A DNA stretch of 46,125 nucleotides from Candidatus Omnitrophus sp. (GCA_020719005.1 DYQZ01000004.1:1-46125); one strand, 5' to 3'; positions 21,007 to 37,466 are shown, counted from the first letter of the stretch. Notes: a model not told the origin generated them from the letters alone. Made by a program: numbers and translations.

Positions 21007-21933
21007 ATGAAAAAGACATTGTTTTTAGTATGCTGCCTTGTGTATGGATGTGTCCTTTTTGTTACCTCCCTTTTTGCCCAGCAAAGTGCTGAGATCATCA
21101 ATATCAATTATAAATATAAGATCGCTTTTGCGGACCTGACCGAGAAAGATGTAAAACCCGGGGATATGGTCACTGTTGGTACATCTAATGGCGAGCAGGT
21201 TTATCTGAAAGTGGTCGAGGCGTATCCGGTCATGGTAAAGCTTATGATCGCGGATGAGCCTGAATATAAACTGACGGAGGAAACGTTCAGTCATATTGTT
21301 GTTGGCGGAAGCGTTGTTGTTGGTAACGCGGGAAAAAAAAGAATGGCAGCGCCTGTTGTGAGCATGCCTTCTGTTAAGGCTGAAGAAAAGACGGTTGATG
21401 AAGATATCGCTCATGTGGAAAGTTATTCACCTTCTTCTCTGCGTGAGACAAAGCCTGTGGAGAGGCCGCTCAAGAATGCCCCGCTTGTGGTGCCGGTGTC
21501 TGTTCCCGTCAAGGAAACGGTTGAAGCTCCTCTTGTTATGGTGCCCGCGGTTGCTGTTTCAAATGATGCTGACGTGTGTAAAAGTCGGTTGGCGACGGTG
21601 GAGAAACGGCTTGATCAGGTCATGAACAACAATGTGTCGTTGTCGGAAAATGTGACCATGCTTTTGGCAGACAAGAATGCGGTTGAGGAAAAAGTGCGGG
21701 TGAAAGAGGCTGAGGCGGTTGTCTTGAAGCAAAAACTCGATGAGGCTCTTCCTGCCCGTAGTGCACTTGAAGGGCAATTAAAAAGCGTCCAGGCGGACCT
21801 TGTGAATGCACGTTCACAAAAAGAGAGCGCGGATAAAGAGATCCAGTCCCTGAACATCAAACTTGTCGAACTTAAGAAAAAACTTGCTCGCATGGTCGAG
21901 ATCATCAACAACAATGTGAAAGTCTATGAATAA
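21007..21933 (+). CDS. Secreted hypothetical protein: N-terminal beta domain, Pro/Val-rich linker, C-terminal coiled coil
   Basis: Signal peptide ending LFA-QQ; heptad pattern over the last ~120 aa; overlaps the next gene by 8 nt. Confidence 0.8.
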   Translation: MKKTLFLVCCLVYGCVLFVTSLFAQQSAEIININYKYKIAFADLTEKDVKPGDMVTVGTSNGEQVYLKVVEAYPVMVKLMIADEPEYKLTEETFSHIVVGGSVVVGNAGKKRMAAPVVSMPSVKAEEKTVDEDIAHVESYSPSSLRETKPVERPLKNAPLVVPVSVPVKETVEAPLVMVPAVAVSNDADVCKSRLATVEKRLDQVMNNNVSLSENVTMLLADKNAVEEKVRVKEAEAVVLKQKLDEALPARSALEGQLKSVQADLVNARSQKESADKEIQSLNIKLVELKKKLARMVEIINNNVKVYE

Positions 21934-24900
21934 AAAATCCATTCTTCCCGGTATTCTTGCAGTTGTTTTTCTGTCATCGAATCTTATGCCGTACGGCGTG
22001 CATGCGGCGCCTCTTGATATGGTGGCGCAGGACGAGCTTTTCTTTGCCCAACAGGAACTGAAGCAGGCAAAGGACAAATTGCTTGCTAAAGAGGCGGAGC
22101 TTTCAAAACTCGTCATGGAAAAAGAAGTGGCGAAAATGAATGCTGAGACAGCGTCTCGAGAAAAGGAACTGCTTCAGGCCAAGATCGACGGCTTGCAAAA
22201 GAATATCGTTGAACGGGACCAGTCTTTGCCTAAACAGATCGAACAATCCATCGGGCCTTTGCAGAGCAGGGCGGATGAATTGAGCCAGGAATTGAAAGTG
22301 TTGCAGTTCTCCCTTGAGCAAAAGAATATCAGGCTTGCTGAAGTGGAAGCTCAAAAGCAGGGCATCGAACTTCAGATGAGAAAGACTGATGATGAGAAAC
22401 TTTTGTTGCGTGATTCGTTAAGAAGGGTCGGCGATGAACTCGACAAGCTTAAGACCAACCTTGCGAAGCGTGTTCAGGAAGAAACAGCTGTTCAGCAGGC
22501 AAAGATCGTTGAACTTGAAAGTAAGGCGTCGGCTCAAAAGACCCTAACGGATGAGAAGATCAAGCAGGCGTCGGTAGTGCTTGAGGACAAGGTCCGCAGT
22601 CTGGATCTGCAACTTAAATCAAAGGATGATGAAGCAAATGCCAAAGTAGCGGCGATCAAAGAGCAATTAGATCAAAAAATAAAGAATTTGGAAGCGGCGT
22701 TGTTGAGTGCAAAGAATGAGACGGCAGGTGCTCTTAAGAATGCGGAAGGCCTTTCCAAAGCAACGATCGAAACATTACGCCAGGAATTAGGCGCCAGGGA
22801 GGCAGATGCCCAGCGTCGCGTTGCTGAGGCTAAGGTGCCGTATGAGGAAAAGATCAAACAGCTGACCTCAAATATTGCGACGGTTAAAGAAGCGGCCCTT
22901 AAAGATGTGCAGGTGATCAAGGGTAAGTATGAGGAAAAAGTGACGGCTCTTCAGGCTGAAATGGGTAAGGCTAAGACAGACGCTGATGTTAAGGTCAAGG
23001 CGGTCAGGGAAGAGTTACAGAAAAAGATCGATGAACTCAACAATAAGATTGAACAGGATAAGACGGACGCCGCGGGTAAATTAGGCGCACAGCGTTTGGA
23101 TTATGATGGAAAATTGGCCCTTGTTAAACAGGAGACGCTCAAAGTCCAGCAGGAATTGTCTTCACGTGAGGGGATGATCGCGTCGTTGAAGCAGGAGAGG
23201 GATGCTCTTTTACTCAAGGGTGAGGATGCAAAAAAGAGCGAGGCTGTGCTTACTGCGAAGATCAGCGGGTTGCAGGATGAAATGGCGGCGCTTAAGAAGA
23301 ATGCCGAACTTCAGGTGCAGGTGGCAAAGAATGATTCAGCGTTGATCGTCGAGAAAATGAAGACAGACGCGCAGTTGGCTCAGGAGAAGATCAAGGCCGA
23401 GGCTGATAAAGCGTTGGCTAATGCGGATGGCAGGGTGGCTAAGATACAAGAAGAGCTCAACGCCTTGCGTATCGTATTGAAAGATAAGGAGACGCAGGCT
23501 CAAGTGGCTGAGAAAGAGCGTGACGCTCTTAGTGCAAAGCTGGCAACGGCGCTCTCTTCAGGTGATGCGCTCCGTAAGAACATGGAAATGGTGCAGGCTG
23601 AATTAAAAACGTTCCAGCAGTCATTGCCTCAAAAGCTTGAGGAAGGAAAAGCTCCTCTGGCAGCTGAGATAGGAATGCTGAAAGCAAAGATCACCGCTCT
23701 TGATGTTGCGGCGCGTGATGCTGATGCCAAAGCACGTTTGGATATTGAGAAGGCGGAAGCCCGGACGGCGGTCGAGGTTGCTAGGATCAAAGAGGAATCG
23801 GCTAAGGCGCTGGCTGTTGTCAAAGACGATGCCTCAAAAGCGTTAGCGTTAGCAAAAAATGATACGGTCGTGGGAGTGAAGGCGGCGAAAGAGGAGGCTG
23901 CTGCGGCTGTGGTCCTTGTCAGGAACGAGAGTGCTGGGGAAATCGCCAGGATCAAGGCGGAAGCTTCACAAATGAAAGATGCGTCTGGCGAAGAGATCCG
24001 TCTTTTAAAAGCCAAGATCGCGGAAGTGCAATCTTCTTTGCCGCGGCTTGTTGAGTTAGAGAAAACACCGTTGCAGGAAAAGATCCGGGTTCTTGAGACG
24101 GAATTACAACAGGCATTGATCGTCGCAGAAAAGACGTCAGGAGAGATAAAGTCAGGGTATGAAACAAAATTGACCGGGTTAAAAAATACCCTTGATCAGC
24201 AAAAAGTGACGTTTGAAGAACAGCTAAGGGCTGTGAAGACGCCTCTTGAGGCAGAGGTGCGTTCTTTACAGCAAAAGCTTGCGGAGATGGATGGGACGCT
24301 AAAGGTGAAAGAAGAAAAGATCGCGGCATTATCGTCTGACCGTGAGGCGCTTTTGAAAGAAAAAGAAAAGACTGCTCTTTCTTTTGCGGGTGAAAAGAAT
24401 GCATTGATGTCGGCGAAAGCAGACCTTGAAGGCTTGATCAAGGCGGCTCAGGATGAGGGTAAACAAAGCGCGCTACGTTTGAAGGAATTGTCTGATCGCA
24501 AGGCCTTTTTGGATGAGGCATTGGCTAAGGCATCGGCAGAACGTGTGAGGTTGACGACGTCGCTTGAGACTGTTCAACAGGAATTGAAGGTGGCTCGGGA
24601 GAGTGTCCCCCTCGAGGTCGCGAAGGCGGCGGATCCGTTAAAGGGAAAAATTGCGGATATTGAGGCAAAGGCAAAAGAAGAAGCGGCGCGGATGCAGATG
24701 AGCATAAGTGATCTTGCAGCGAAAATGAAGGCAATGACCACTGAGCGTGATGCTCTTTTGAAAGAAAAAGAAAAGCTGGTGGTCTTACGCGCGAATATCG
24801 AAGAGGAGCTTAAGACATTAAAGGAGACTGCGACGAAAGAGGTTGAGGCATTGCCACTAAAACTTGCTGAAGCCAGGAAACCGTTGGAAGAAAAGATCGG

Positions 24901-27900
24901 CGCACTTTCACTTAAGACGGTCTCATTGGAGGCGGCTTTAAAAGATAAAGATGCGGCACTGTTGGTCTTGAGCAAAGAACGTGAAGCGTTGACCTGGCAA
25001 CGTGCGACGCTACAGAGCGAGAAAGAAAAGCTTTCACTTGAGGCGGAGCGCAATGTTCAGACATTAAAAATGAAGCTTGATGATCTTCAGGAAGAGGGTG
25101 TTGCAAAGGCTCAGGCGGCGAAGGTTCAATTGGCATCTGTTCAGGAAGATGGCTTGAGGAAGGTAAAGGCGTCGGAAGAGGCGCTGTCCCTCCAGCAGAA
25201 GAATGCTGATGAGCAAATGAGAAAAGTGCAGGCGTCTTTGGATGCGTCGAATGCGCAGTTGAAAAAAGTGCAGGCATCGCTTGAGGCGTCTAACATTGCA
25301 TTGAAAGAAAAACAGGATTCTCTCACCGTGTTGACCGGGGAGCGTAATGTTTTGTCCGCAGAGAAAGTCAAAGCCGTTGAGTTGAAGGCATCGACGGAAG
25401 AGGCGTTAAAGAACGTGAAAGCGGAATTGGCCAAAGAGAATGCATCACTGCCGGAGAAGTTGGCACAAGTTAAAAGACCTCTTGAGGCAGAATTGGCAAA
25501 GGTGAAGGCAGAGTGGATGTCGTTGAATGAAGGGTTGAAGAATAAAGAGGCTCAGTTCAATGTTTTATCCAAAGAGCACGCGGATCTGTTGAATGAAAAA
25601 GAAAAACTTGTTGTTTCAAAAGGTGAACTGGAAGCGGCGCTCAAAGATGTAAAAGGATCTTTAATGGCAGCGGTGGCAGAGATGCCGGGGAAGATCGCGG
25701 AAGCAAAGAAGCCGTTGGAATCAAAGGCTGCCGGGCTTGAACAGGAATTGAGAAAGGTTTCAGCTCAGTTAACGTCAGCGAACGACAAGATCCAGACGCT
25801 GTTATCTCAGCAGACCAAGGTTATGCAGGAGAATGCTGCTCTTCTTGAAGCGCGTAATACGGCTGTGGCGCGTGTGGCGCAGTTAACGATTGATCAAAAA
25901 GACCAGGCTGAGGCATTGCCGGTCAAATTGGCTGAAACCAAACGACCGCTGGAAGAAAAGATACAGGACCTTGAAGAGACGGTGGCTACATCGCAAAAGA
26001 CCATTGCTGAGAAAGAGAACGCGATAAGCGCATTGGATAAAGAAAAAGCTCAGCTTATGAAGGATAAGGATTCTTTGGGTGCGGCTGTGCGAGGGGCGAA
26101 TGAAAAGATAGCGTTGTTGCAGGCTGATATCGCGCGCGCGCGTCAGGACATTGATAGCAAGAAGGCGGAAAATGCGGCGCTGTTAAAGGAACGCGACGGG
26201 CTGGAAAATGAGAAAGCCGCGACGCTGAAAGAGACAGCGGCATTTAAGAAAGAGTTTTTGGCGTTGCAGGGGCGTGCTGAAAAGATAGCGCAGGCATTTG
26301 AAGAGAAAGAAAAGGCCCTTGGCGCGACGATCAAAGAGAGAGATGGGCTTTTAAAAGATAAAGTATCTTTGGAGGCGTTACGTTCATCACTTGAAGGTCA
26401 GCTTAAGGAATCACGGGAGAAATTTGCTTCTGAAGCAGATGCTCTTCCTGAGAAATTATTAAAAGCCCAGGAACCGATCGCTTTGCAGGTTAAAGAGGCT
26501 GAGGCAAAATACACGACGGCAAGTGAAGCGTTGAAGAATAAGTCGGACGAAGCTAAGAGCCTTCAGATAAGGCTTGAAGAGATGACCAAGAAAGCGGCGA
26601 GCCTTGATAATGAACGTGCCAAATTGACGCAGGCATTGTCGGCGCTGCAGCAGGAAAAGGAAACATTGAATGCATCGATCCCGGGGCGGGTCGCGAGCGT
26701 TGAGGTGCCGCTGAAAGAAAAAGTGGAAGCGTTGCAGAAACAGCTTTCTGACATGAACAGTGCCTATAAGTCTTCTGAGACGGAAAAAGGGCGTATCTTG
26801 ACCCAGCTGGGGGCGGTCATGAAAGAGCGCGATACGTTGAACGTTGCTGTGGCTGATCTAAGCGGGCAGTTAACACAATTTAAAGGCCAGCTTGTTGAAA
26901 CACGCGAGGCCTTAAAGACAAATGAAACGCTCCTTCCGGAGAAACTTGCCTCGGCGCAGGCGGAAGCGTTAAGACCTGTCACGGATGAACTCGCGGGGGT
27001 GAAGGCCAAGTTGACGGATGTTTCAGCCCAGCTCGTGGTTAAGGCAAAAACTGTGGAAGATCTTTCAGCTGAGCGCGAGGCGCTTAAGAAACAGATCGAA
27101 GGCGTGAACGCAAGATACGGCAAGCTGGAAATGCTTCTTAAGACGCGCATGGATGAGATGCAAAAGGTGATCGGCGAAAAAGATGCCGCATTGACTAAGT
27201 TGAAAGAAGATTCTCAGGCGCGTTGGGAAAGTCGTGAGGTCGAGGTCGCAGGAGTTGCAAAGGCTAAGGATGCGTTGTTGAAAGAAAAAGAGCAGGCCTT
27301 GTCGGTCTTGGGGAAAGAGGCACAGGCGCTTAAGACGCAGTTGGATCAGGTCATTAAAGAAAAAGAAAACGCGGTTGTTGATATCCAACAGTTGAGCAGT
27401 GATAAAGCTGCGCTTGAAAAGAGTATTCCGCTCAAGGTGTCTGAGGCTCTGCGCCCTCTTGAGGCAAAAACAGCACAGATCGTCGCTGAACTTGATAAGA
27501 ATGCGGCGCTATTGGCGTCAAAAGAAAAAGAACTTTCAGCGTTGAACGGTGCGCAGGCGGCACTTCAAAAAGAATTTAAAGGGGCTCAAGAAGAGATAGC
27601 AGGGCTTTCTTTGTCATTGACGCGCGCAGGAGAAACAGCGTCAGTGACGGGTGCAAGACTTCAGGATGCTAAGAAAGAATTGAATGATCTTACGAAAGAA
27701 AAGGATGCGTTAGTAAAGAATATTGGGCAGTTGTTGGATGAGAAGAAAGGCTTGGAAGAGGCTTTAATGGCGTCGAGAAGAGAGGCGGAAAGTCTTCAGG
27801 CATCGATCCCGGAACGTCTTTCGCAGGTACAGACACCGCTCAACGTTAAATTGAGTGCGCTAGAGAAAACAACCCTTGAAAAGGACCAGGTGATCAAAGG

Positions 27901-30900
27901 GTTGGAGGCTGATCTTTCTGCGGTTGGCCAGGAATTGGCGCTTGTTAAGAAAGAATATGCGACGCTGACGGCGGAGAAAATGAAAGCGGATGCGGGAAAT
28001 CAAACGTTGGCCAAAGAACTGCAGGCGCTTAAGGGATCCATACCACAGCAGTTGGCTTCCGTCGAGAAGCCGTTGACAGTGAAGATCGCGGATGCAGAAG
28101 AGCGCGCACGCGGGATGCAGGAGATGTTGTCCCGGAAAGAGGCACTGATCAAAGATGCCGGGGCGCGGCAGGCGGCACTCTTGAAGGAAATGAATGAAGT
28201 TAAACAAGCAAAGAGTGATCTTGAGGTGTTGTTGGCGAAAGAAAGGACGGATCATGAGGCATTTGTCGCCGGTGTGCCGCAACAACTGTTGTCTGTTGAG
28301 ACGCCGCTTAAGAATGAAGTCATGCTTTTGCAGAAGAAGCTCGCAGACAATGCGTCCTTGATACATCAAAAAGAAGAAGTGTATGCCCGGCTTACAACAG
28401 AGCGGGATGGTCTTCTTAAAGATAAGAATGCGGCAGTGGAAGAAGTCAAACGTTTGTCGTTGTTGGTTGATCGTTCCAGGGAAGAGCAGAGTGCGATATC
28501 GACGGCGCTTGTGAATGCACAAAAGGCGCTCAATGATGAAAAGACTGCATTGCCTTTGCGTCTTTCGCAATTGAAAGCACAGACAGAAGCGCCATTGAAT
28601 GCCAGGCTTGCTGAATTGGATTCAACAGAAAAGGCGTTAAATGCGGCATTAAGTGAGAAGCAAAAGAATATTGTTCAGTTGTTGAGTGAGAAAGATCGTT
28701 TGTCGGCACAGTTAAAAGAAGAACAGGGTCGCGCGGCGCAGTTGAGCGGTGCGTTGGATGTCTCCAGAGCAGAAGCATCGCGTCTTAAAGAGGCTTTGCC
28801 TAAAGAGATCGAAGAAGCGCGTAGTAAAGCGCGTGATGAAGCGACACGTCCGCTTCAGGCAGAGGTGGCCCGTCTTAATACGTCACTGGTCGATCAGAAG
28901 AAGACCTTGGACCTTACGAATGAGCAGTTGAGGATCAAGGCTGAGAATGAAAAAACCGCGCTTCAGGCCCGTATCAGTGATGCGGAAAAGAGCATTCAGA
29001 CCAAAGATGAGGCCTTAAAAGCATTGGCTGTATCAAAGGACAAACTTGATGTGCAGCTTAAGGAAGCGCTGGCACAGCGTCAGCGTCAAGAAGAGGCGGC
29101 GCTGAAGGCTCAAGCACTGTTCACTGAAAGATTAAAGGCTGCTGAAACGGCTCTTGTTGAGGTCCAGAAGAAAGCAGAACTTCAACTTGGTCAGGCTCAG
29201 GAATCCGGTCGTGCTGAATTGACGAATGTGAAGGCGGCCGCGCAAAATGCACAGGCGTCTTTGTCAGGAAAGGTCACGGAACTTAGCGAGAAGATAAAGG
29301 AACAGAATAGCGTTATCAAAGAGAGAGAAGACCGGTTAACGGCACTTGATCGTCAGAGAACGGGTCTGCAGCAAGAACTAAAAACATCTCAAGACCGCGT
29401 TATTTCTCTTGAGGCGGATCTTAAGTCCGTCGGGGAGAAGCTTTCTTCTGCTGAAAAGAGTATCCCACAGCGTCTTTCCGCGCTGCGTGTTGAAGTGGCG
29501 CAGCCGTTAGAGGCAGAGATGGCCGCGTTAAAAGCAAAGACAGCTGGCGATCTGACGGCGCTTCAGGTTAAAGCGGGCGAGGATGTTAAACGCGCACAGG
29601 CACAAACAGCAGAAGTGAAAGCCTCTCTTGAGAAAGCATTGGCAGATGCCGGAGCGCGCGTGTCAGCGCTTGATCAGCAGGTTTCTGACAGGCAGGCGCA
29701 GGTCGTTCTTTTGACCAAAGAGAAAGAAGAAGTAACGCGTTCATTGGCGGGCGAACGCGCAGGTTATGCCAAACTGACAAAAGAGCATCAGGATCTCATC
29801 GAGAAAATGAAGATCGTCGAGGCCAGCGTGCCTCAAAAGATCGAGCAGTCGGTCATGGCGTCTGTTGCGGCGGCGCGTGAGCCGTTACAGAATAAGATCG
29901 CTGAATTAGAGAAGAGAACGTCTGCGATGTCAGATGCGATCGGCCAGAAAGATGTGGAATTGTCCCGTCGTGCCGAAGCATTGGCGAAGTTGGTCAAAGA
30001 ACGTGATCTGACGTCAAATGAATTGAACAGTGTTAAGGCCGAAAAGGGAAAGATCCTCGCGGATCTCATGCGCACTGAGGCGGATCTTAAGGCGACCGCC
30101 AGTGCTCTTCCAGAAAAGCTGGCAGCGGTCCGCATGGACGCAACGAAACCTCTTGAGGCGGAACTGGCAAAGACAAAACAAAAAGCGGATGAGGATGTGA
30201 AGGCTGCAATGGCTGATGCCCTTTCTAAGGTCAACGACGAGAAAGCTCGCCGTGAGGCGGAGCAGAGAACGCTGCAGGAAAAGATGGGCGTGCTTAATAA
30301 AGAACTCCTAAATGCCCAGAATGCAATGCTTGGCGTGAAGACAAGCCTTGAGGGAATAAGTCAGCAGCGGAATTCTTTGGTGAATGAAGTTGCAGCTCTA
30401 AAGAAGGAAAATACTGTATTGGCCCGGACGCTTGATGAGGTCCGCTCGGAGGGCCTTAAGGAAAAAGAAGCGGGCGGTGTGCGTATCGCGAACTTAGAGG
30501 CGCAGATGAAGGCAAAGACCGACGATCTTATGAAGCAGGTTGAGGAGCGTATTCGTCAGGCCGAGAATAAGGTTGTCGAAATGCGTCAACAGGCTGAAGA
30601 TCGTTTGGCCATGGCAAAGGCGGAAAATCAGCGTGCCGTGGAAACAGTAAGTGCAGAAGCTGTGAAGACCCGTCAGGAAGCTGAAGGGAAATTAGCGCAG
30701 TTCAATAAAGAGGCGGGGCAGAAAGAAAAAGCATTGCAGGATGAACTTTCGGCATTACGTCAGTCGCTCGACGTTCGTGTTAAAGCGCTCTCAGATGAGC
30801 TAAAGACAGGTGAGAATTCTTTTCTTGCAATGAAGCAGGAACGTGATGCGTTGTCGTTGCGTCTGAAAGAAGAACAGGCGGCTTCTTTAAAATTGAATGT

Positions 30901-33900
30901 TTCATTGAATGACGCGAAGAATGAATTGGCGCGTGTACAACAGGCGATTCCCGCCCAGGTCGCTACTGCAGTTGCGGCTGTTCGCGCTCCTCTTCAGACG
31001 GAGAATAGTACACTCAAGGATGCTTTAACGAAAGCAAAAGAGGAGCTTGCGGTAAAGCTTGAAGAGCTTAAAGACCTGAATGCTGAATTTGATGGGGTCA
31101 AGGAAGCGTTGGTCGCTTCGGAAAAAGAACGAGTGATCAGAGAGAAGCAGGGGGTCATGCTGACAGCTAAATTGTCATCGCTTAGCACCTCGATCCCTGA
31201 TCAGGTTGCATCAGCCAGAGAGCCTGTTCTTAAGGAGTTAAATACACTCAAAGAAAAGATCGTAGAGCAGACGGCGGATATGACAGAGAAACAGCGTCTT
31301 ATCGACGTACTTAGTGCGGATAAGGCGATGCTTTTAAAACAGGCGGAAGACCTGCGTCTTAAGCAGTCTGGCATGGGCCAGGAATTGCTCAGCACGCGCA
31401 CGGCGTTGAAAGCGCAGGAAGAAGATGTTGTTGTGAAGATGGCGCTTGCCAAGAAGCCTTTGGAAGAAGCACTTATTCAGGCGAAGAAAGATCAGGATAA
31501 GCTGCGTGCAGAGATAGGTTTGACCGCCGATCAGCTTCGGGCCAAGATGGCGGCACTTGATCAGTTGAATACGTCGTTGGTTGGTTTGACCAAAGAGCGT
31601 GATCTGTTGATTACTGAAAAGATGCAGTTGAATGCTCAGCTTGAGCAAATAAAGCTTAAAGCGGCCGTTGATGAAAAGAGCGCGATCGAGCGTTTGGCAC
31701 AAGCTGAGACTAATGTGCGCCAGCCCCTGGAAGCTCAAGTGGTAAAGGTCCGGAATGAGATGAGTGCCGAGATAAAAGCGCTTGAAGAAAAGAGTGGGAA
31801 AGAAGCGGAGGCGTTGCAAGCTAAGATCTCGTCGTTGGACATGGCGGCAAAGGACCTTTCAGGTCGCCTCGCGGAAAAAGAAGCGGTATTAAAAAGTTTA
31901 AGCGAGGAAAAACAGAACCTTTCTATGGGACTTGCTTCTCAGGAAAAAGCAAAGGCCTCTCTTGAAGGGAACATTGCGGCGTTAAAAAAGGAAATGGAGG
32001 CGGTGAATGCTTCTGTTGCGGAGCGTGTGGTGAAGGCCAAAGAGCCTTTGGAAAAGCATATCAAGGACCTTGAGAATCAGTTACGTGCAAGTGAGATCCT
32101 CGCCGGATCAAAGCTCAATCAGATGCAGGTCCCTCTTAAGGACAGGATCAGTTTTCTTGAAAATGAAGTTAAAACCGCGCAGGACCTGTATCAACAACAG
32201 GAAAAAATGGTAAAAGAAATGGTCGCTAAGCGCGATGAGCTCCTTAAGAACCTTGGTGAGGTCGAGCGTGACCGTCAGTCGCTTAAAGTTCAGGTCACGG
32301 GTCTGACGAATAAATTAACTGAAAGTGAGAGCGCGCTTCCTGTACGTTTAGCTCAGGCCAAGGCTCCGTCGGAGGCTAAGACCGTTGAACTGGAAAGTCA
32401 GGTCGAGAAATTGACCGCGGCACTTAAAGAAGCACTGGAAAATAAGGACAAGATGGCAGCGGAGTCGCTGAAAGAAGCGCAGGCTTTGCGTCAATCACTT
32501 GATCAGGCGGTGCGTGAGAAGACGTCTGTTGGTAATGAGCTCTCTGTTCTTAAGGCTACAGCAGAGGGGCTGTCGGTGTCCTCTGAGGAAAGAGCTCGAA
32601 GTGTAGAAGAGTTGCGTCAGAAGAATTTTGAACTGACACGTGAGCTTTCAGCGCTTCAGGGGAACAAGGCTTCGTTGGATAAGAAATTCCAGCAGACGGA
32701 TGCGGAGCTTAAAAATTTCCAGGGTTCCATCAGCAAGCGTATTGAAGAAGCCCGTCAGCCTTTGGAAGATACGCTGCGGTCTCTCGAGAAAAATTTGTTC
32801 GAGAAAGATACAGCTCTCAAGGATAAAGATGCCGAGATCATGCGCCTGACCAAAGAGCGCAATAATTTCGTTGGCAAGTTTTCTCAGGCGGAAGAACAAG
32901 GGAAGACATCATTAAGCAAAATGGCTCAGCTTGAAAGCCAGCAGGCAGCATTTGACCAGAAGATGAATGAGACCATTGCTCAGACCAGGGGGCCTCTTGA
33001 AAAACAGATCACGGACCTGACGCTTCGTTTGTCGTCGTTACAAGCTGAGCGCAAGGCGGAGACTGATGGCGTATCTGTCAAGTTGGCTGCTACGAATGCC
33101 GGTTGGGAAAAGCAGATGGCGGCTCTGAAGGCCGAGATGGAACGCATGACGGCAGCTTCCCGTTCTTCGTCGGAAGCGTTAAAGGTTTCTTATGAAGAGA
33201 AGATCGCACAGCTTAATATGCGTCTTAATGAATTGAAGGCCGATCTGGATGGCCGTGTTAAAACAGCGTCGGATGCGAGATCGGCGCAAGATGCACAGCG
33301 GGCGGCATTAAATGCGCTCAAGGAAGAGAAAGCAAAGATGTCGGCGGAGATCCTTCAATTGCGCGAGGCATTAAAAGTGAAAGAAGCTGATATGACGCTT
33401 AAGGTTTCTTCACTTAGCGCTTCCCGTCAGGATGAGATAAAAGCGGTTGAGGAAAAATGGGGCGCTTCAAAAGCAGAGATCGAAAAGACAGCGCAGGCGC
33501 TGAAGGCGCAGTTGAATGCGCAGTCTCTTGAGTTCACGCGGCAAATGCAGGCCAAAGAAATGATCCTCAAGGAGAAAGAATTGGCCGTATCTCAGATGCA
33601 GTTCAGGATCGAAGGGCTGGAGAAAGATCTTGATATGATGAAACAGGACAAGACATCTCTTGATGAAGAGAAGGCCCGTATGGAACAAACCCTCAAGGAG
33701 TCAAAGGCGGGTTCGATCGAATCCCGTCGTGTTGAGATCGACGCGGCTAAGGCACCATTGCTTGAGCAGTCGCGTCAACTTCAAAAGACGGTTGAATTGA
33801 AGGAGGAGGAGATCAAGGCTCAAAAGGCGCGCGAATCTGTTTTGATCCAGACCCGTGAAAAAATGAACGGCGAGTTCGTTCTGTTGAAGGATCAGCTGGG

Positions 33901-34285
33901 CAAACTCGAGGCACAATATGCCGAGGCCATGGCCTTATTGTCTAATGTGCAAGGGGCGGGACGCACAAACCTTGATGAGGCGCGTAAAGAATTAGAGGGG
34001 AAGATCGTCCAGATCCAGGCAGAGTCAGCACCTCTTAAAGCTCAAATAATGGAGAGGGACGCATCGATCAAAGCATTGAAAGCCTCATTAGAAGCATCAG
34101 TGAAAGAGAAAGATGTTATGAATGCCGAGGCTTTAAGGCTGAAAGAGAAAACCGCGGCATTGGAAACAGAATTGAGGTCTAAAGATAAAGCGTTCACAGC
34201 CCTTCGTCAGCAAGTTGATACGAAACAGCAGGACCTGAAGGCTGTTCAGGATGAATTGAACGGAGCGATGGAACTGGTCAAGTAG
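21926..34285 (+). CDS. Giant (4119 aa) secreted segmented coiled-coil protein of unknown function
   Basis: Uninterrupted 12.36-kb ORF; signal peptide (MNKK..hydrophobic..VHA-A); K/E/A/L/Q-rich heptads throughout; about 30 copies of an (S/A)(L/I)PxK(L/V)...PLxxK(I/L)-like motif; no globular or ATPase domain recognised. Confidence 0.9.
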   Translation: MNKKSILPGILAVVFLSSNLMPYGVHAAPLDMVAQDELFFAQQELKQAKDKLLAKEAELSKLVMEKEVAKMNAETASREKELLQAKIDGLQKNIVERDQSLPKQIEQSIGPLQSRADELSQELKVLQFSLEQKNIRLAEVEAQKQGIELQMRKTDDEKLLLRDSLRRVGDELDKLKTNLAKRVQEETAVQQAKIVELESKASAQKTLTDEKIKQASVVLEDKVRSLDLQLKSKDDEANAKVAAIKEQLDQKIKNLEAALLSAKNETAGALKNAEGLSKATIETLRQELGAREADAQRRVAEAKVPYEEKIKQLTSNIATVKEAALKDVQVIKGKYEEKVTALQAEMGKAKTDADVKVKAVREELQKKIDELNNKIEQDKTDAAGKLGAQRLDYDGKLALVKQETLKVQQELSSREGMIASLKQERDALLLKGEDAKKSEAVLTAKISGLQDEMAALKKNAELQVQVAKNDSALIVEKMKTDAQLAQEKIKAEADKALANADGRVAKIQEELNALRIVLKDKETQAQVAEKERDALSAKLATALSSGDALRKNMEMVQAELKTFQQSLPQKLEEGKAPLAAEIGMLKAKITALDVAARDADAKARLDIEKAEARTAVEVARIKEESAKALAVVKDDASKALALAKNDTVVGVKAAKEEAAAAVVLVRNESAGEIARIKAEASQMKDASGEEIRLLKAKIAEVQSSLPRLVELEKTPLQEKIRVLETELQQALIVAEKTSGEIKSGYETKLTGLKNTLDQQKVTFEEQLRAVKTPLEAEVRSLQQKLAEMDGTLKVKEEKIAALSSDREALLKEKEKTALSFAGEKNALMSAKADLEGLIKAAQDEGKQSALRLKELSDRKAFLDEALAKASAERVRLTTSLETVQQELKVARESVPLEVAKAADPLKGKIADIEAKAKEEAARMQMSISDLAAKMKAMTTERDALLKEKEKLVVLRANIEEELKTLKETATKEVEALPLKLAEARKPLEEKIGALSLKTVSLEAALKDKDAALLVLSKEREALTWQRATLQSEKEKLSLEAERNVQTLKMKLDDLQEEGVAKAQAAKVQLASVQEDGLRKVKASEEALSLQQKNADEQMRKVQASLDASNAQLKKVQASLEASNIALKEKQDSLTVLTGERNVLSAEKVKAVELKASTEEALKNVKAELAKENASLPEKLAQVKRPLEAELAKVKAEWMSLNEGLKNKEAQFNVLSKEHADLLNEKEKLVVSKGELEAALKDVKGSLMAAVAEMPGKIAEAKKPLESKAAGLEQELRKVSAQLTSANDKIQTLLSQQTKVMQENAALLEARNTAVARVAQLTIDQKDQAEALPVKLAETKRPLEEKIQDLEETVATSQKTIAEKENAISALDKEKAQLMKDKDSLGAAVRGANEKIALLQADIARARQDIDSKKAENAALLKERDGLENEKAATLKETAAFKKEFLALQGRAEKIAQAFEEKEKALGATIKERDGLLKDKVSLEALRSSLEGQLKESREKFASEADALPEKLLKAQEPIALQVKEAEAKYTTASEALKNKSDEAKSLQIRLEEMTKKAASLDNERAKLTQALSALQQEKETLNASIPGRVASVEVPLKEKVEALQKQLSDMNSAYKSSETEKGRILTQLGAVMKERDTLNVAVADLSGQLTQFKGQLVETREALKTNETLLPEKLASAQAEALRPVTDELAGVKAKLTDVSAQLVVKAKTVEDLSAEREALKKQIEGVNARYGKLEMLLKTRMDEMQKVIGEKDAALTKLKEDSQARWESREVEVAGVAKAKDALLKEKEQALSVLGKEAQALKTQLDQVIKEKENAVVDIQQLSSDKAALEKSIPLKVSEALRPLEAKTAQIVAELDKNAALLASKEKELSALNGAQAALQKEFKGAQEEIAGLSLSLTRAGETASVTGARLQDAKKELNDLTKEKDALVKNIGQLLDEKKGLEEALMASRREAESLQASIPERLSQVQTPLNVKLSALEKTTLEKDQVIKGLEADLSAVGQELALVKKEYATLTAEKMKADAGNQTLAKELQALKGSIPQQLASVEKPLTVKIADAEERARGMQEMLSRKEALIKDAGARQAALLKEMNEVKQAKSDLEVLLAKERTDHEAFVAGVPQQLLSVETPLKNEVMLLQKKLADNASLIHQKEEVYARLTTERDGLLKDKNAAVEEVKRLSLLVDRSREEQSAISTALVNAQKALNDEKTALPLRLSQLKAQTEAPLNARLAELDSTEKALNAALSEKQKNIVQLLSEKDRLSAQLKEEQGRAAQLSGALDVSRAEASRLKEALPKEIEEARSKARDEATRPLQAEVARLNTSLVDQKKTLDLTNEQLRIKAENEKTALQARISDAEKSIQTKDEALKALAVSKDKLDVQLKEALAQRQRQEEAALKAQALFTERLKAAETALVEVQKKAELQLGQAQESGRAELTNVKAAAQNAQASLSGKVTELSEKIKEQNSVIKEREDRLTALDRQRTGLQQELKTSQDRVISLEADLKSVGEKLSSAEKSIPQRLSALRVEVAQPLEAEMAALKAKTAGDLTALQVKAGEDVKRAQAQTAEVKASLEKALADAGARVSALDQQVSDRQAQVVLLTKEKEEVTRSLAGERAGYAKLTKEHQDLIEKMKIVEASVPQKIEQSVMASVAAAREPLQNKIAELEKRTSAMSDAIGQKDVELSRRAEALAKLVKERDLTSNELNSVKAEKGKILADLMRTEADLKATASALPEKLAAVRMDATKPLEAELAKTKQKADEDVKAAMADALSKVNDEKARREAEQRTLQEKMGVLNKELLNAQNAMLGVKTSLEGISQQRNSLVNEVAALKKENTVLARTLDEVRSEGLKEKEAGGVRIANLEAQMKAKTDDLMKQVEERIRQAENKVVEMRQQAEDRLAMAKAENQRAVETVSAEAVKTRQEAEGKLAQFNKEAGQKEKALQDELSALRQSLDVRVKALSDELKTGENSFLAMKQERDALSLRLKEEQAASLKLNVSLNDAKNELARVQQAIPAQVATAVAAVRAPLQTENSTLKDALTKAKEELAVKLEELKDLNAEFDGVKEALVASEKERVIREKQGVMLTAKLSSLSTSIPDQVASAREPVLKELNTLKEKIVEQTADMTEKQRLIDVLSADKAMLLKQAEDLRLKQSGMGQELLSTRTALKAQEEDVVVKMALAKKPLEEALIQAKKDQDKLRAEIGLTADQLRAKMAALDQLNTSLVGLTKERDLLITEKMQLNAQLEQIKLKAAVDEKSAIERLAQAETNVRQPLEAQVVKVRNEMSAEIKALEEKSGKEAEALQAKISSLDMAAKDLSGRLAEKEAVLKSLSEEKQNLSMGLASQEKAKASLEGNIAALKKEMEAVNASVAERVVKAKEPLEKHIKDLENQLRASEILAGSKLNQMQVPLKDRISFLENEVKTAQDLYQQQEKMVKEMVAKRDELLKNLGEVERDRQSLKVQVTGLTNKLTESESALPVRLAQAKAPSEAKTVELESQVEKLTAALKEALENKDKMAAESLKEAQALRQSLDQAVREKTSVGNELSVLKATAEGLSVSSEERARSVEELRQKNFELTRELSALQGNKASLDKKFQQTDAELKNFQGSISKRIEEARQPLEDTLRSLEKNLFEKDTALKDKDAEIMRLTKERNNFVGKFSQAEEQGKTSLSKMAQLESQQAAFDQKMNETIAQTRGPLEKQITDLTLRLSSLQAERKAETDGVSVKLAATNAGWEKQMAALKAEMERMTAASRSSSEALKVSYEEKIAQLNMRLNELKADLDGRVKTASDARSAQDAQRAALNALKEEKAKMSAEILQLREALKVKEADMTLKVSSLSASRQDEIKAVEEKWGASKAEIEKTAQALKAQLNAQSLEFTRQMQAKEMILKEKELAVSQMQFRIEGLEKDLDMMKQDKTSLDEEKARMEQTLKESKAGSIESRRVEIDAAKAPLLEQSRQLQKTVELKEEEIKAQKARESVLIQTREKMNGEFVLLKDQLGKLEAQYAEAMALLSNVQGAGRTNLDEARKELEGKIVQIQAESAPLKAQIMERDASIKALKASLEASVKEKDVMNAEALRLKEKTAALETELRSKDKAFTALRQQVDTKQQDLKAVQDELNGAMELVK
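23777..23974 (+). repeat. Six 11-residue (hendecad) repeats in the giant protein
   Basis: VARIKEESAKA / LAVVKDDASKA / LALAKNDTVVG / VKAAKEEAAAA / VVLVRNESAGE / IARIKAEASQM. Confidence 0.7.
25223..25306 (+). repeat. Tandem 42-nt (two-heptad) duplication in the giant gene
   Basis: KVQASLDASNAQLK / KVQASLEASNIALK; both units begin aaagtgcaggc. Confidence 0.8.
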
Positions 34286-34473: not shown

Positions 34474-35544
34474 ATGATCGCAGCCTATCACCATCTTTGG
34501 GGCACTGTACTTCTTTTTCGGGATCCTTTCTTTCTTGCTATGTTTTTTGTTGTTGTTTTAACGCCTCTGATGATCGTTCTTGCGCATCGTTTTAATATCC
34601 TGGATCATCCGAATGAACGTAAACTACACTCTAAGCCTGTGCCGCGTTTGGGGGGGCTGGGGATCCTGATCGCTTTTTGGATGGCCGCTTTATTTCATTT
34701 GCCCTGGAGCAATGAATTCACTTCTATTCTGATCGGCGGTTCGATCATTGCGATCATGGGGATCGTTGATGATATTCGCGGCCTTTCTTCCGTGGTGCGT
34801 CTTGGTGGACAGCTTCTGGCATCTATCATTGTGATGTCGTCGGGGCTTATTGTTTCTTTTATGCCGCATACGCTTTTGGGAACGCTCATCGCATGGCTGA
34901 TCACACTCCTTTGGATCATCGGGATCATCAATGCCTTGAATTTTATGGATGGCCTGGACGGCCTGGCTTCCGGCATGACCATGATCGCAGCCTTCTTTTT
35001 CTTTTTAATGGCAGTTTATTTACGTCAGCTTGATGTGGCGCTCTTGGGTGCTGTTCTGATGGGGAGTGCAGCGGGATTTTTGTTCTATAATTTTAAACCG
35101 GCAAAAATATATCTTGGGGATGGCGGAAGCACTTTCTTTGGTTTTATGCTGGCGTGCCTGGCACTGTACGGCGGATGGTCGAATGACGGTTTCATTGTAG
35201 CACTGGGGGTTCCGACCATTATCCTGGGGGTGCTGGTGTTTGATATGATCTATATCACGATCTCGCGTATCAAGAATGGTGAGGTGAAGACATTCCGTCA
35301 GTGGCTTGATCATACGGGCAGGGATCATTTTCATCATCGTTTATTAAGCCTGGGGTTCTCTGAAGTAGGGGCCGTGCTGTTCATTTATCTGGTGTGTTTT
35401 ATCCTGGGGCTTAACGTGTTGGTGCTTGAGCGTTTGCGTAATCCATTGGGAGTTGGTATCCAGTTCTTCAATGCCATGCTTATTTTCCTGCTCATCTTAT
35501 CCTTGATGCGGACAGGGAGGGCGTTCCTTAGTAAGAAGAAATAG
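34474..35544 (+). CDS. wecA: MraY/WecA-family undecaprenyl-phosphate GlcNAc-1-P transferase
   Basis: DHPNERKLH..PVPRLGG, GIVDD, NALNFMDGLDGLA, YNFKPAKIYLGDGGS and DHFHHRL; many TM helices. Confidence 0.9.
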   Translation: MIAAYHHLWGTVLLFRDPFFLAMFFVVVLTPLMIVLAHRFNILDHPNERKLHSKPVPRLGGLGILIAFWMAALFHLPWSNEFTSILIGGSIIAIMGIVDDIRGLSSVVRLGGQLLASIIVMSSGLIVSFMPHTLLGTLIAWLITLLWIIGIINALNFMDGLDGLASGMTMIAAFFFFLMAVYLRQLDVALLGAVLMGSAAGFLFYNFKPAKIYLGDGGSTFFGFMLACLALYGGWSNDGFIVALGVPTIILGVLVFDMIYITISRIKNGEVKTFRQWLDHTGRDHFHHRLLSLGFSEVGAVLFIYLVCFILGLNVLVLERLRNPLGVGIQFFNAMLIFLLILSLMRTGRAFLSKKK

Positions 35545-35551
35545 GAGTGTT

Positions 35552-36637: not shown

Positions 36638-36641
36638 AGGC

Positions 36642-37466
36642 GTGTATACCAAGCACTGGTCTCTTTTTGAAAAACCTTTTGAACTGACGCCGGACCCGAA
36701 GTACGTCTATTATTCCAAGGCGCATGAAGAGGCTCTCTTGAGGCTTGTTTATACGGTGCGGGATGCCAAGGGCGCGATGCTGTTGACAGGCGGATATGGT
36801 TGCGGCAAAACGATCCTCAGCCGCGTGTTCTTGAATGAGCTCGTGAGTGCATCCAAGTATGAAGTAGCGCTCATTACAAACCCGCGTTATTCGGCCAAGG
36901 AGCTTTTGATCGAGATCATCTATCAGCTCGGCGGAGAGCGTCACGACTATAAATCCAAAGGCGAGCTCTTGCATCTTTTTAATGAGACCATTTATCGGAA
37001 CTTGGAAAATCATAAAGAAACGGTTATAGTAATAGATGAGGCGCAGGCGATCGAGGACTTAGAGACGTTCGAGGAGCTTAGGCTTTTGCTCAATTTTCAG
37101 CAGAACAACCGCTTTTTGATCACGCTGATATTGATCGGTCAACCCGAACTTCGTGCACGTCTTAAGAGTTTACCGCAACTAAAACAACGCTTGATGATCG
37201 AGTATCACCTCAATGCGTTGGATGAACGTGATTGTTATCAGTATATTGATCATCGATTGCGTGTGGCAGGGGCCAAGCATGAGATATTTGAGGCGCGGGC
37301 AAAGAAAATGATCTACAAGATCTCGGCGGGTGTGCCGCGCGTGATCAATGGTTTGGCGGATATCGCATTACTCATCGGGTATTCCGAGAATAAAAAGAGC
37401 ATTGACGAAGATTTCATTAAACGGGTGGCTGAGAATAGCGAGATGTCAACGTCATGGTCAGACTGA
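36642..37466 (+). CDS. ExeA/GspA-like AAA ATPase without peptidoglycan-binding domain
   Basis: GTG after GAGG; Y..HW.L.EKPF.LTPDP..Y.S..HEEAL, Walker A GGYGCGKT, VIDEAQ, LIGQPEL, YIDHRL.VAG and GVPRVIN. Confidence 0.9.
   Translation: MYTKHWSLFEKPFELTPDPKYVYYSKAHEEALLRLVYTVRDAKGAMLLTGGYGCGKTILSRVFLNELVSASKYEVALITNPRYSAKELLIEIIYQLGGERHDYKSKGELLHLFNETIYRNLENHKETVIVIDEAQAIEDLETFEELRLLLNFQQNNRFLITLILIGQPELRARLKSLPQLKQRLMIEYHLNALDERDCYQYIDHRLRVAGAKHEIFEARAKKMIYKISAGVPRVINGLADIALLIGYSENKKSIDEDFIKRVAENSEMSTSWSD

Follow-up and report, generated by a model that had tools for sequence, protein, structure and literature searches.

The DNA analysed here, a window of 46,125 nucleotides from an uncultured Omnitrophota nanobacterium, carries a 12.4-kb open reading frame for a protein of 4119 aa (P0001, the giant protein), preceded by a smaller partner gene (P0002) and followed by a polysaccharide-export cluster (Table 1). 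The giant protein is probably exported and all-helical, export being read from its signal peptide. A leader that is first basic and then hydrophobic is common to the giant protein and all of its full-length relatives, and the motif at the extreme C-terminus, E-[LI]-x-x-A-[LM]-[ED]-L-[IVL], is kept in six of the six apparently full-length family members examined. Scans of the whole protein found no hydrophobic segment beyond the N-terminal leader and no lipobox, LPXTG or Walker A ([AG]xxxxGK[ST]) motif. Profile searches against Pfam and NCBIfam returned no family at cut-off, and no match to an existing repeat, in agreement with an earlier note on this DNA that had described the repeat family as one its author did not recognise.

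The partner protein consists of a signal peptide, a conserved small beta-barrel domain (EIININYKYKIAF.DL..), a disordered linker rich in proline and valine, and a 120-aa helix, predicted as a long single terminal helix at a pLDDT of ~97. Of the order's other genomes, 120 were searched and its beta domain was detected in 17 (8 of 30 in f1, 9 of 30 in f9 and none of the 29 searched in the f13 subfamily). At all 18 partner loci, the present one included, the next same-strand ORF encodes an A/L/E/K/Q-rich protein with an N-terminal leader, and in two families of the order the giant gene follows this conserved exported partner and adjoins polysaccharide-export genes. The downstream cluster encodes a WecA/MraY-type transferase, a conserved 361-aa unknown, an XrtA/PEP-CTERM-type ATPase, an HD-GYP-type protein, a Wza-like exporter, a Wzz/tyrosine-kinase protein, a Wzy-like protein and ABC-2/Wzt transporter components; synteny of the polysaccharide-export genes extends to G016. 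In G032, which is more distant, the giant gene is again followed by relatives of the 361-aa unknown and of the Wzz-like protein, and a REC-HD-GYP regulator precedes the partner. Among the genomes searched, the coiled-coil family is confined to a single Omnitrophota order; it appears to be rare, is named in none of the family libraries or literature searched, and no published description of it was found there.

Table 1. Coordinates of features at the giant-protein locus, numbered from the first nucleotide of the window
Feature	Position	Strand	Remarks
Partner gene P0002, 308 aa	21007..21933	+	Overlaps giant start by 8 nt
Giant ORF P0001	21926..34285	+	A/L/E/K/Q-rich; only 59 prolines; no Cys
Probable Sec signal peptide of giant protein	21926..22006	+	MNKK, hydrophobic core, VHA|A; judged by eye
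Part of repeat array covered by the finding	24599..31420	+	14 of 16 unit copies of profile A1
Three consecutive exact 78-aa units	25442..26143	+	Residues 1173-1406; inside modelled monomer/dimer segment
Two consecutive exact 78-aa units	26438..26905	+	Residues 1505-1660; after 176-aa interval (78 + 2 x 49)
P-x12-P joint, example	26936..26977	+	Residues 1671-1684; three 4-residue steps; preceding interval 89 = 5 mod 7
Three consecutive exact 78-aa units	27800..28501	+	Residues 1959-2192; after 127-aa interval (78 + 49)
P-x16-P joint, example	28799..28852	+	Residues 2292-2309; four 4-residue steps; preceding interval 86 = 2 mod 7
Two exact 78-aa units	30953..31420	+	Residues 3010-3165
Conserved extreme C-terminus of giant protein (..DELNGAMELVK)	34238..34282	+	Motif comparison
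Downstream polysaccharide-export cluster	34474..45240	+	Profile matches, synteny

Joints and intervals

The earlier note had described proline-pair joints that recur in the giant protein with a 78-aa period. The first prolines of successive joints do lie at 25451, 25685 and 25919, at 26447 and 26681, and at 27809, 28043 and 28277, in exact steps of 234 nt (78 aa), and the quoted examples of the three joint types are present: PEKLAQVKRP (P-x8-P; residues 1176-1185), PEKLAAVRMDATKP (P-x12-P; residues 2729-2742) and PKEIEEARSKARDEATRP (P-x16-P; residues 2292-2309). There are 23 proline pairs outside the signal peptide, 16 of them P-x8-P, five P-x12-P and two P-x16-P. Between first prolines there are 22 intervals, among them 78 aa (five times), 82 aa (three times), 85, 92, 127 and 176 aa, as had been claimed, together with some longer ones that, as the note itself stated, are off its simple rule. 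The second proline (x-P-L-E) is better conserved and was used as the anchor, giving 33 anchors and 32 intervals in the giant protein; nine of these intervals are 78 aa and one is 29 aa. When 33 anchors were placed at random 20,000 times, identical intervals numbered at most five, with a mean of 2.0. From 30953 towards the C-terminus most joints retain the second proline alone, and more repeat units follow beyond 31420, as far as ~33000.

Autocorrelation at 78 residues is significant (BLOSUM62): lag 78 ranks above all other lags greater than 20, whether residues 892-3103 or the entire giant protein are taken (z of 5.2 in each case), and exceeds the maximum over all lags in 100 of 100 shuffles; at lag 77 the value is negative. 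As proposed, the spacing is kept at the protein level, and the DNA copies are diverged; TRF detects no 234-nt array, and 12 units share a mean nucleotide identity of 37%, against 29% for random in-frame segments, and an amino acid identity of 19%.

Pooled over 13 family proteins, the joint intervals number 266, of which 171 are 1 mod 7, against 38 by chance, a comparison that overstates independence because the pooled proteins are the top matches of a 78-position profile and are mutually related. The commonest intervals are 78 (111 times), 29 (23) and 71 (16), and classes 1, 5 and 2 mod 7, corresponding to two, three and four stutters, cover 219 of the 266. Among short intervals, 116 of 125 ending at P-x8-P are 1 mod 7 and three of four ending at P-x12-P are 5 mod 7; between 100 and 200 aa, the only 1 mod 7 intervals are 127 (six times), 176 (twice) and 106 (once). 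The giant protein is the least regular of the 13. Thirteen of its 34 intervals are 1 mod 7, nine are 5, four are 2 and eight fall elsewhere, and five short or medium intervals (82, 131, 160, 218 and 126) depart from the class predicted by their joint type.

Architecture of the 78-residue unit

Exact 78-aa units, 49 in all and drawn from 14 family proteins, were stacked gap-free. Strong hydrophobic columns in this stack are 3, 7, 14, 18, 21, 25, 32, 39, 42, 49, 53, 63, 67, 74 and 77, and weaker ones are 10, 28, 56 and 70; the core spacing is 4,3,4 and again 4,3,4 over columns 3-24, followed by alternating 3 and 4 over columns 25-77. Of the units, 80% have proline in column 4, 100% have it in column 13 and 98% have leucine in column 14, and Lys/Arg predominate at the expected core columns 35, 46 and 60. 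Hydrophobicity has its Fourier peak at 3.50 residues and is confined to ~19 of 78 columns, a narrow seam. The sequence has the features of the coiled-coil class, namely a 3.5-residue a/d seam and discontinuities that are helix-compatible stutters.

Read from this alignment, the 78-aa unit consists of two proline-marked hendecads (22 residues) followed by eight heptads (56 residues), equal to 11 heptads + 1. The first hendecad would open with phi-P and the second with P-L-E, such that a 22-residue joint starts each segment. A hendecad is a heptad with a 4-residue stutter, and therefore a normal two-hendecad joint adds 8 residues, or 1 mod 7; joints of the x12 and x16 types would contain one and two extra stutters and give intervals of 5 and 2 mod 7. 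Longer segments would gain whole heptads, mostly as seven-heptad blocks of 49 residues, and the +49 and +98 intervals are read as such blocks. The quantisation in steps of 4 and 7 seen by the earlier note is thus real as a matter of spacing but is not a special code: segments grow by stutters and whole heptads, and a heptad of 7 and a stutter of 4 residues are standard coiled-coil arithmetic, as set out in PMC4786415. The lysines at three core positions, together with two prolines per unit, would create a defined and locally weakened node rather than a break.

Structure models

A 260-aa segment of P0001 with three joints was modelled in two copies (ESMFold2), this being the sole oligomeric state modelled. 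The result was a parallel in-register dimer, pairing residue i with i from 5 to 243 across all three joints, with contacts agreeing by at least 98% between runs and a pLDDT of at least 86. Its ipSAE was 0.42, against 0.00 for the best control; that mark was attained by 21 solved homodimers out of 30 and by none of 23 single chains, but since solved coiled coils are plentiful, the pass may mirror likeness only. When the same segment was modelled as a monomer with AlphaFold2 (pLDDT 90, pTM 0.54), the helix was broken at residues 15 and 94, just ahead of the first proline of two joints. The best Foldseek matches of this monomer are antiparallel hairpins (Smc5/6 arm, TMq 0.57; YscO, TMt 0.82).

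Rigid rods of ~10 nm linked by kinks had been suggested for this protein. Rod segments of ~11.6 nm (78 x 0.1485 nm) with sharp proline-marked joints are consistent with the data; the kinks are not borne out, since the modelled dimer runs through the joints. The joints may instead act as binding nodes, the other suggestion of the earlier note. The whole protein would have a contour of ~0.6 micrometre if fully extended.

Discussion

Our results suggest, with a probability of roughly 0.6, that the giant protein is an exported and near-uninterrupted helical coiled coil, which forms a parallel two-stranded segmented rope of ~0.6 micrometre and serves as a fibre or scaffold in the envelope or outside the cell. 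The strands of this rope would be parallel and in register, and its segments would be set off by the 22-residue joints, with eight canonical heptads between them. The rope may be made together with the exported upstream partner, whose long helix could anchor or cap it, and the gene neighbourhood suggests that it could act in the same process as the adjoining polysaccharide-export machinery. We infer that a role as an envelope or extracellular fibre scaffold is likely.

A different arrangement would be an intramolecular zig-zag in which the joints are turns and the 78-residue helices pack antiparallel into a compact accordion or helical sheet. The breaks in the AlphaFold2 monomer and the two-helix hairpins heading the Foldseek matches point in this direction, and an exact unit length would be selected if helices had to match in length. 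However, every Foldseek match has an E of at least 0.011, the third joint is unbroken in the same monomer, and lone amphipathic helices often fold back in monomer predictions because this is their sole way of burying the seam. Units of 29, 78, 127 and 176 residues also directly adjoin within one chain (P0001, G016 and G001), which would leave long helices unpaired in a zig-zag of equal hairpins and fits a continuous rope; as the two-copy model also favours the in-register parallel dimer, we regard the zig-zag as quite improbable. Another stoichiometry, either a trimer, a tetramer or a hetero-oligomer with the 120-residue helix of the partner, is unlikely. The partner does end in a long single helix and its gene is translationally coupled to that of the giant protein through the 8-nt overlap, but this helix spans at most ~3% of the giant's length. 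Moreover, Lys/Arg at three core positions combined with a mostly Ile/Leu a/d pattern is commoner in two-stranded than in three- or four-stranded coils.

It could also be argued that the proline-punctuated helices are unpaired and form a belt or coat flat against a lipid or membrane surface, as in apolipoproteins. One relative with 29-residue units (G038, 1318 aa) matches the Pfam families Apolipoprotein A1/A4/E (E of 7e-20) and ApoLp-III (E of 2e-6), and the P-L-E-x-K-phi helix start recalls the proline-led helices of apolipoproteins. Both matches are nevertheless under the curated cut-offs (71.9 versus 90 and 28.2 versus 36.3 bits), the giant protein has no such Pfam match at E <= 0.1, and its narrow 3.5-periodic seam differs from the wide 11/3-periodic face of lipid-binding helices; hence, we consider this arrangement very improbable. 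A cytoplasmic protein of the SMC, Rad50 or SbcC type would account for the matches to NCBIfam SMC models (E of 2.5e-45) and for the label 'Exonuclease SbcC' on a public relative (P0009). These matches, however, stay at 154.7 bits, below the cut-off of 567, and involve only the coil regions of the model, P0001 has no Walker A, the Pfam search found no head or hinge domain, and signal peptides are present on the giant protein and its relatives. This identity is refuted for practical purposes.

For the two-stranded rope, a phase rule can be formulated on the model, although we think it unlikely to hold, by which spacings of 29 + 49n residues would set every proline node on one face. The spacing would then reflect more than the inheritance of a repeat length. 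If each turn comprises 3.63 residues, the seam would rotate by -180.5 degrees over 49 residues, -4 over 29, -184.5 over 78, -365 over 127 and -545.5 over 176; a two-stranded rope looks alike after half a turn, and therefore nodes of the 29 + 49n series, which makes up 142 of the 171 intervals of 1 mod 7, would all face the same way. If this rule is true, the giant protein would be a rail of 0.6 micrometre whose docking nodes all face the same way and recur every 11.6 nm; it could follow a surface or bind a partner that is itself periodic. For a cell size of 0.2 micrometre (PMC10066038), the rope would be long enough to circle the cell once (circumference, ~0.63 micrometre). Under the phase rule, it might thus be an external hoop or ruler that organises the nanobacterial envelope or the exported polysaccharide.

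Comparison with known systems

Membership of further helical families was rejected. For the intermediate-filament-like and crescentin families (PF00038 and PF19220), P0001 has no match, its ortholog in G016 scores 22.2 and 17.3 bits against 40 and 100, and there is a signal peptide; for the spectrin repeat, a three-helix bundle of ~106 residues, there is no Pfam match and the models have continuous helices of at least 78 residues. The myosin-II rod is a long parallel dimeric coiled coil with rare one-residue phase slips, and its 28-residue charge zones set the stagger. In the giant protein, by contrast, skips are regular, and no long-range charge periodicity was found in its repeat family. Thermotoga likewise exports a rod-like coiled coil, Omp-alpha, which spans the periplasm but measures 50 nm against ~0.6 micrometre; unlike Omp-alpha and the golgin giantin, which are long coiled-coil spacers or tethers, the giant protein lacks a membrane anchor, an SLH domain and a barrel. 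We know of no report of strict 78-residue segmentation with proline pairs for Omp-alpha or giantin.

The published Omnitrophota giants (Archaeovorin, dockerin, multi-enzyme and tandem-repeat proteins) come from the same phylum and are also very long; for most of them export or membrane association is predicted, with action at the cell surface proposed. They exceed 20 kb and have many transmembrane helices and beta-helix, dockerin, SecA_DEAD or enzyme domains, whereas P0001, at 12.4 kb, is all-alpha with no Pfam domain and no hydrophobic segment after the leader, and it was not assigned to this class; in the checked papers on Omnitrophota giant proteins, the word 'coiled' is absent from the main text. 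Apolipoproteins (PF01442 and PF07464) resemble the giant protein in having helices punctuated by prolines at fixed intervals, but show an 11/22-residue periodicity and a broad lipid-binding face, in contrast to a narrow a/d seam, a heptad body and units of 78 or 29 residues. Membership of Apolipoprotein A1/A4/E (PF01442) was rejected on the unit length of 78, the ~19 of 78 hydrophobic columns and the lack of a qualifying match.

The 7n + 1 rule is shared with SF-assemblin and beta-giardin (PF06705), the segmented coiled coils of eukaryotic striated fibres. PF06705 has no match in P0001 at E <= 0.1 and scores 17.5 bits in G038, against a cut-off of 30.6. SF-assemblin segments have 29 residues, i.e., four heptads and a skip, whereas the giant protein has n = 11 and 78 residues (78 in nine and 29 in one of the 32 intervals); in relatives such as G038, 29-residue units prevail (16 of 21 intervals). 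The giant protein differs further in being bacterial, predicted to be exported and ~15 times longer, with two prolines per slip. In SF-assemblin, as described in PMC2119799, the sequence drifts while the length and the sequence principles are kept.

Results

The 78-residue repeat of the giant protein

The giant protein P0001 is rich in Ala (14.7%), Leu (13.3%), Glu (12.3%), Lys (12.1%) and Gln (7.0%), with 59 prolines and no cysteine. Its N-terminus (MNKKSILPGILAVVFLSSNLMPYGVHA followed by AP), judged by eye, resembles a Sec signal peptide without a lipobox, and a scan of the whole sequence detected no hydrophobic segment beyond this leader, no LPXTG and no Walker A motif. An earlier note had described rods with a 78-residue period linked at proline pairs, and every joint that it placed or spelled out is correct. 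Outside the signal peptide there are 23 such pairs, or joints (16 P-x8-P, 5 P-x12-P and 2 P-x16-P). The second proline, in the context x-P-L-E-x-K-phi, is the better-conserved anchor, and the C-terminal units lack the first. Measured on this anchor, 9 of 32 joint-to-joint intervals are exactly 78 residues; random placement of 33 anchors gave at most 5 identical intervals in 20,000 trials. In a BLOSUM62 self-comparison, lag 78 ranks top (z 5.2), both in the region first noted and in the whole protein, and exceeds the all-lag maximum in 100 of 100 shuffles, while at lag 77, an exact multiple of seven, the value is negative. Nine exact units made into a profile also retrieve units outside the build set (E 1e-8 to 5e-12).

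Pfam yielded no match to the giant above cut-off (top, DUF1664 at 18.4 bits and YwqH-like at 17.5 bits), and in NCBIfam SMC models match coil regions only, at 154.7 bits against a cut-off of 567. With a significant autocorrelation and no matching Pfam repeat, neither of the two grounds on which the repeat was to be abandoned holds. The DNA copies are diverged, as had been stated: units share 37% nucleotide identity, against a background of 29%, and 19% amino acid identity. TRF found no 234-nt DNA tandem, and the unit profile found no second locus in the window's own genome (assembly of 1.44 Mb, 85.5% complete). The feature is real and well defined, and its structure is largely explained.

Coordinates of the features (window positions unless a locus is named)
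Feature	Position	Strand	Remarks
Giant ORF (P0001)	21926-34285	+	12,360 nt, 4119 residues
Partner gene (P0002)	21007-21933		directly upstream of giant; 8-nt overlap with giant start
Conserved C-terminus of giant	34238-34282		also in P0003, P0006, P0007, P0009 and the G016 protein
NrdD and activase-like genes	14719-18391		
361-aa ORF	35552-36637		
HD-GYP-type protein	37454-38581		
G016 ortholog	L100:2236-13428		
G001 homologue, 660-aa ORF	L102:10666-12648		
G001 homologue, 2599-aa ORF	L102:12203-20002		
G036 relative	L103:9016-13977		29-residue units
G038 relative	L104:5916-9872		29-residue units

Unit anatomy and spacing arithmetic

The anatomy of the unit (a joint plus its heptads) was read from an ungapped stack of 49 units, each of exactly 78 residues, that come from 14 family proteins. 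Hydrophobicity is strong at columns 3, 7, 14, 18, 21, 25, 32, 39, 42, 49, 53, 63, 67, 74 and 77, and weaker at 10, 28, 56 and 70. Columns 25-77 alternate spacings of 3 and 4, as heptads do (Fourier peak 3.50), and columns 3-25 are spaced 4,3,4 and again 4,3,4, as two hendecads; hence, 78 = 2 x 11 + 8 x 7 = 11 x 7 + 1. Proline occupies column 4 in 80% and column 13 in 100% of units, and leucine column 14 in 98%. Columns 35, 46 and 60, expected in the core, mostly carry Lys or Arg instead (76%, 39% and 63% basic).

As described in PMC4786415, a stutter inserts four residues and so converts a heptad into a hendecad; two stutters in a row amount to inserting one residue, and three to inserting five. 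Hydrophobic or small residues are spaced 4,3,4,4,4 in x12 joints and 4,3,4,4,4,4 in x16 joints, which therefore have one and two additional stutters. The steps of +7 and +4 in the earlier note are thus a heptad and a stutter, its +49 is seven heptads, and this arithmetic predicts intervals of 1, 5 and 2 mod 7 for x8, x12 and x16 joints. In the giant the rule holds for 78 (9/9), for 89 (two) and 96 to x12, for 86 to x16 and for 127 and 176 to x8 joints; it is broken by 82, 131, 160, 218 and 126, for which a discontinuity in the body is needed in addition. Unit anatomy and mod-7 rule are established here as properties of the sequence. Myosin-like long-range charge periodicity was not found in the unit stack, the giant or the G016 protein, and a charge-stagger assembly rule was dropped for this reason.

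Family members and distribution

A 16-unit profile (A1), run against 1.84 billion representative proteins, matched 503 at E <= 1e-3, of which 58 reach E <= 1e-10 and 13 reach E <= 1e-30. Its top matches are proteins of 1323-4143 aa with 18-43 matched stretches, and have in common the phi-P-x8-P-L-E joint and an N-terminal leader. All six apparently full-length members carry E-[LI]-x-x-A-[LM]-[ED]-L-[IVL] in the last ~10 residues, and the final residue is Lys in four and Glu in two. This motif could serve in docking or capping; that the terminal lysine might attach to peptidoglycan, as in Braun lipoprotein, is only an idea. The partner's own C-terminus (ending in ARMVEIINNNVKVYE) is loosely similar to the motif.

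Of the 266 joint intervals pooled over 13 family proteins, 171 fall in class 1 mod 7, with one-seventh expected by chance, although these counts are not independent because the proteins are related and were picked by a 78-position profile. Within this class, 78 occurs 111 times, 29 occurs 23 times, 71 occurs 16 times, and 64 and 50 three times each; between 100 and 200 residues there are only 127 (six), 176 (two) and 106 (one). The counts lead to a preferred series of 29 + 49n, the 49-residue quantum being backed specifically by only the eight intervals of 127 and 176.

The ortholog of the giant in a sister genus (G016; 3730 aa) has 23 of 35 intervals at 78 and three at 29, and lag 156 is its strongest, ahead of 78. 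It is far more regular, so the giant is a comparatively eroded member. Two unit types alternate in this ortholog as a two-unit super-repeat of 156 residues, which is missing from the giant. The G038 relative (1318 aa) consists mostly of 29-residue units, a joint plus one heptad (16 of 21 intervals). The subfamily of such units (G036 and G038; type of families f13/f5) has proteins of 1318-1653 aa, no partner gene, and as conserved neighbours two ~280-aa proteins followed by glmS. The G038 protein also scores above the cut-offs that Pfam sets for Baculo_PEP_C and DUF4407, matches that are probably driven by composition. In the G001 homologue, the two ORFs overlap in different frames, and the gene reaches the contig end and resumes on G001:C18; this split is due either to a frameshift or to misassembly of a repetitive gene.

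In a phylum-wide sample of 400 other genomes, 22 match the unit profile at E <= 1e-6, with open frames of up to 5143 and 5659 codons. Twenty belong to the window's order (families f1, 1/15; f9, 9/15; f13, 10/13), and the two outside it have single matches without the joint columns. Twenty of 40 closer relatives match at E <= 1e-3, at least five matches occurring in only eight; a search of genome contigs with the whole giant found no relative. Among the genomes searched, the family is thus restricted to one order. The window's NrdD shares 86-89% identity with its counterparts in a dozen Candidatus Omnitrophota MAGs, which supports the placement of the organism. This anaerobic ribonucleotide reductase, with its ATP-cone, lies between two radical-SAM activase-like genes, which is consistent with an anaerobic lifestyle.

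Partner gene and neighbourhood

The partner (308 aa) has a signal peptide and a conserved beta domain of six strands (residues 27-105, pLDDT > 90), after which come a disordered linker rich in Pro and Val (111-185) and one helix of 120 residues. In structure, the beta domain comes closest to FlgT and to the N-terminal barrels of F/V-type and FliI ATPases, all weak matches (E 3.6e-4 and weaker, TMq about 0.2); as such small barrels are common, no function was read from this likeness. Among 120 other genomes of the order, 17 yielded the domain (f1, 8/30; f9, 9/30; f13, 0/29). At each of the 18 loci, the ORF that follows on the same strand is A/L/E/K/Q-rich with an N-terminal leader, its full length being checked for G000, G016, G032 and G001 only (that of G277 has 262 aa). 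Comparison of these loci indicates that the partner gene is conserved with a giant-type gene.

Downstream of the giant lies a polysaccharide-export cluster, which is syntenic in G016. Its best NCBIfam matches are XrtA/PEP-CTERM-associated components, all below cut-off (ATPase, 212.7 bits; exporter, 86.6; chain-length determinant, 109.6; tyrosine kinase, 115.7). In the distant G032, relatives of the 361-aa protein (E 3e-9) and of a Wzz-like protein (E 4e-21) follow the giant, and a REC-HD-GYP regulator precedes the partner; the neighbourhood is common to two families of the order. The 361-aa ORF, which has no Pfam or NCBIfam family match, has a homologue after the giant in G016 (48% identity) and a weakly conserved one in G032 (32% over 74 aa).

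Other neighbours vary. In f9 relatives (L111, L112, L116, L119, L121), the partner-giant pair has a REC + HD-GYP response regulator directly upstream; the window has an HD-GYP-type protein, with no receiver domain detected, three genes downstream of the giant (29% identity over 154 aa to the f9 regulator). Relatives from genus g11 and of G007 (L113, L115, L118, L123) have a protein with prepilin-type N-terminal methylation motif directly upstream of the partner (in L113, PF07963, E 2.5e-8), itself preceded by another coiled-coil ORF.

Predicted pairing of chains

Two copies of giant residues 1160-1419, which span three joints, were modelled as a dimer. In a MAFFT alignment of three-unit segments the rows were displaced by whole repeats (260-aa rows spread over 572 columns), so the dimer was folded without an alignment. 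The model is a parallel, in-register dimer, with top-confidence contacts from i to i (55-55, 62-62, 126-126); its interface follows the a/d assignment, including both 4-4 steps, and runs gap-free through every joint from residue 5 to 243 of the segment. Runs share at least 98% of contacts, with pLDDT of at least 86. The ipSAE was 0.42, against 0.00 for the best of three controls, a mark that 21 of 30 solved homodimers attain but none of 23 single chains. This pass may stem from likeness to solved coiled coils and is support rather than proof.

Discussion

The giant is a segmented coiled coil, and the dimer model suggests a parallel two-stranded rope that would run on through the joints; fully extended, it would measure ~607 nm, as computed from residue number. 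It is also conceivable, though unlikely, that the joints are turns and successive helices are antiparallel, in a zig-zag. Modelled by AlphaFold2 as a monomer (pLDDT 90.1, pTM 0.54), this segment breaks its helix only at the residue preceding the first proline of joints 1 and 2 and resembles antiparallel hairpins (every Foldseek E >= 0.011). However, hairpins are taken here as the behaviour expected of a lone amphipathic helix, and units of 29, 78, 127 and 176 residues adjoin directly in family proteins, which a regular zig-zag could not fit.

Why certain lengths are favoured is a more speculative matter. If one turn takes 3.63 residues (PMC4786415), the seam drifts by -4 degrees over 29 residues, -180.5 over 49, -365 over 127 and -545.5 over 176, and by -184.5 over 78, a value sensitive to the assumed periodicity (-163 to -206 degrees for 3.62-3.64 residues per turn). 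The drift is -132.9 degrees for 64 residues, -158.7 for 71, -210.2 for 85 and -173.6 for 89. On a two-stranded rope, the favoured lengths may therefore place all joints on the same face. Alternatively, the preference for 78 could be the inheritance of an ancestral unit length.

The leader sequences, read by eye, suggest that the giant and its relatives are exported, and the gene neighbourhood is circumstantial evidence of a role in the envelope or matrix. Because it would be exported, has a dedicated conserved partner and adjoins polysaccharide-export genes, the giant is a candidate structural element, presumably a fibre or scaffold that is produced together with the partner and has a link to polysaccharide export. 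Omnitrophota cells are mostly ~0.2 micrometre (PMC10066038). A protein of ~0.6 micrometre from such a phylum, with relatives of up to 5659 codons, may belong to a still-unseen envelope or attachment apparatus of suspected predators or parasites.

To our knowledge, coiled coils are the sole protein fold with a geometry computable from sequence, and this family is an unusually clean natural test set for it, with dozens of diverged copies per protein (~19% identity) and hundreds in relatives, a strict length rule of 7n+1 that favours 29 + 49n, and a fixed proline pair per double stutter. If the rule reflects supercoil phase, it would parallel, in bacteria, the periodic sites of tropomyosin that face its target, and would offer a principle for designing long periodic scaffolds.

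This family is named in none of the family libraries and papers searched. One of five proteins looked up has a public name (P0009, 'Exonuclease SbcC'), which is probably a coiled-coil artefact and is unsupported by the sequence, the window homologue lacking the ATPase head motif. A PDB sequence search with the unit profile returned generic coiled coils only, such as keratin and designed peptides (best, 8qox_B, E 1.9e-6, body columns 14-74), and an Atlas search with a 1301-aa part of the giant returned only generic coiled-coil clusters, all < 0.9. We found no '78-residue repeat', or variants of the term, in the papers searched, although supplementary gene lists might include the family, and 'coiled' is missing from the main text of the publications examined on Omnitrophota giant genes and biology. 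Membership tests exclude the apolipoprotein, SMC, intermediate-filament, spectrin-repeat and published Omnitrophota-giant families. The giant also fails the SF-assemblin/beta-giardin profile and differs from these proteins in unit length, proline marking, size, location and kingdom. The published giants of the phylum have architectures unlike that described here, and the protein is thus another kind of giant.
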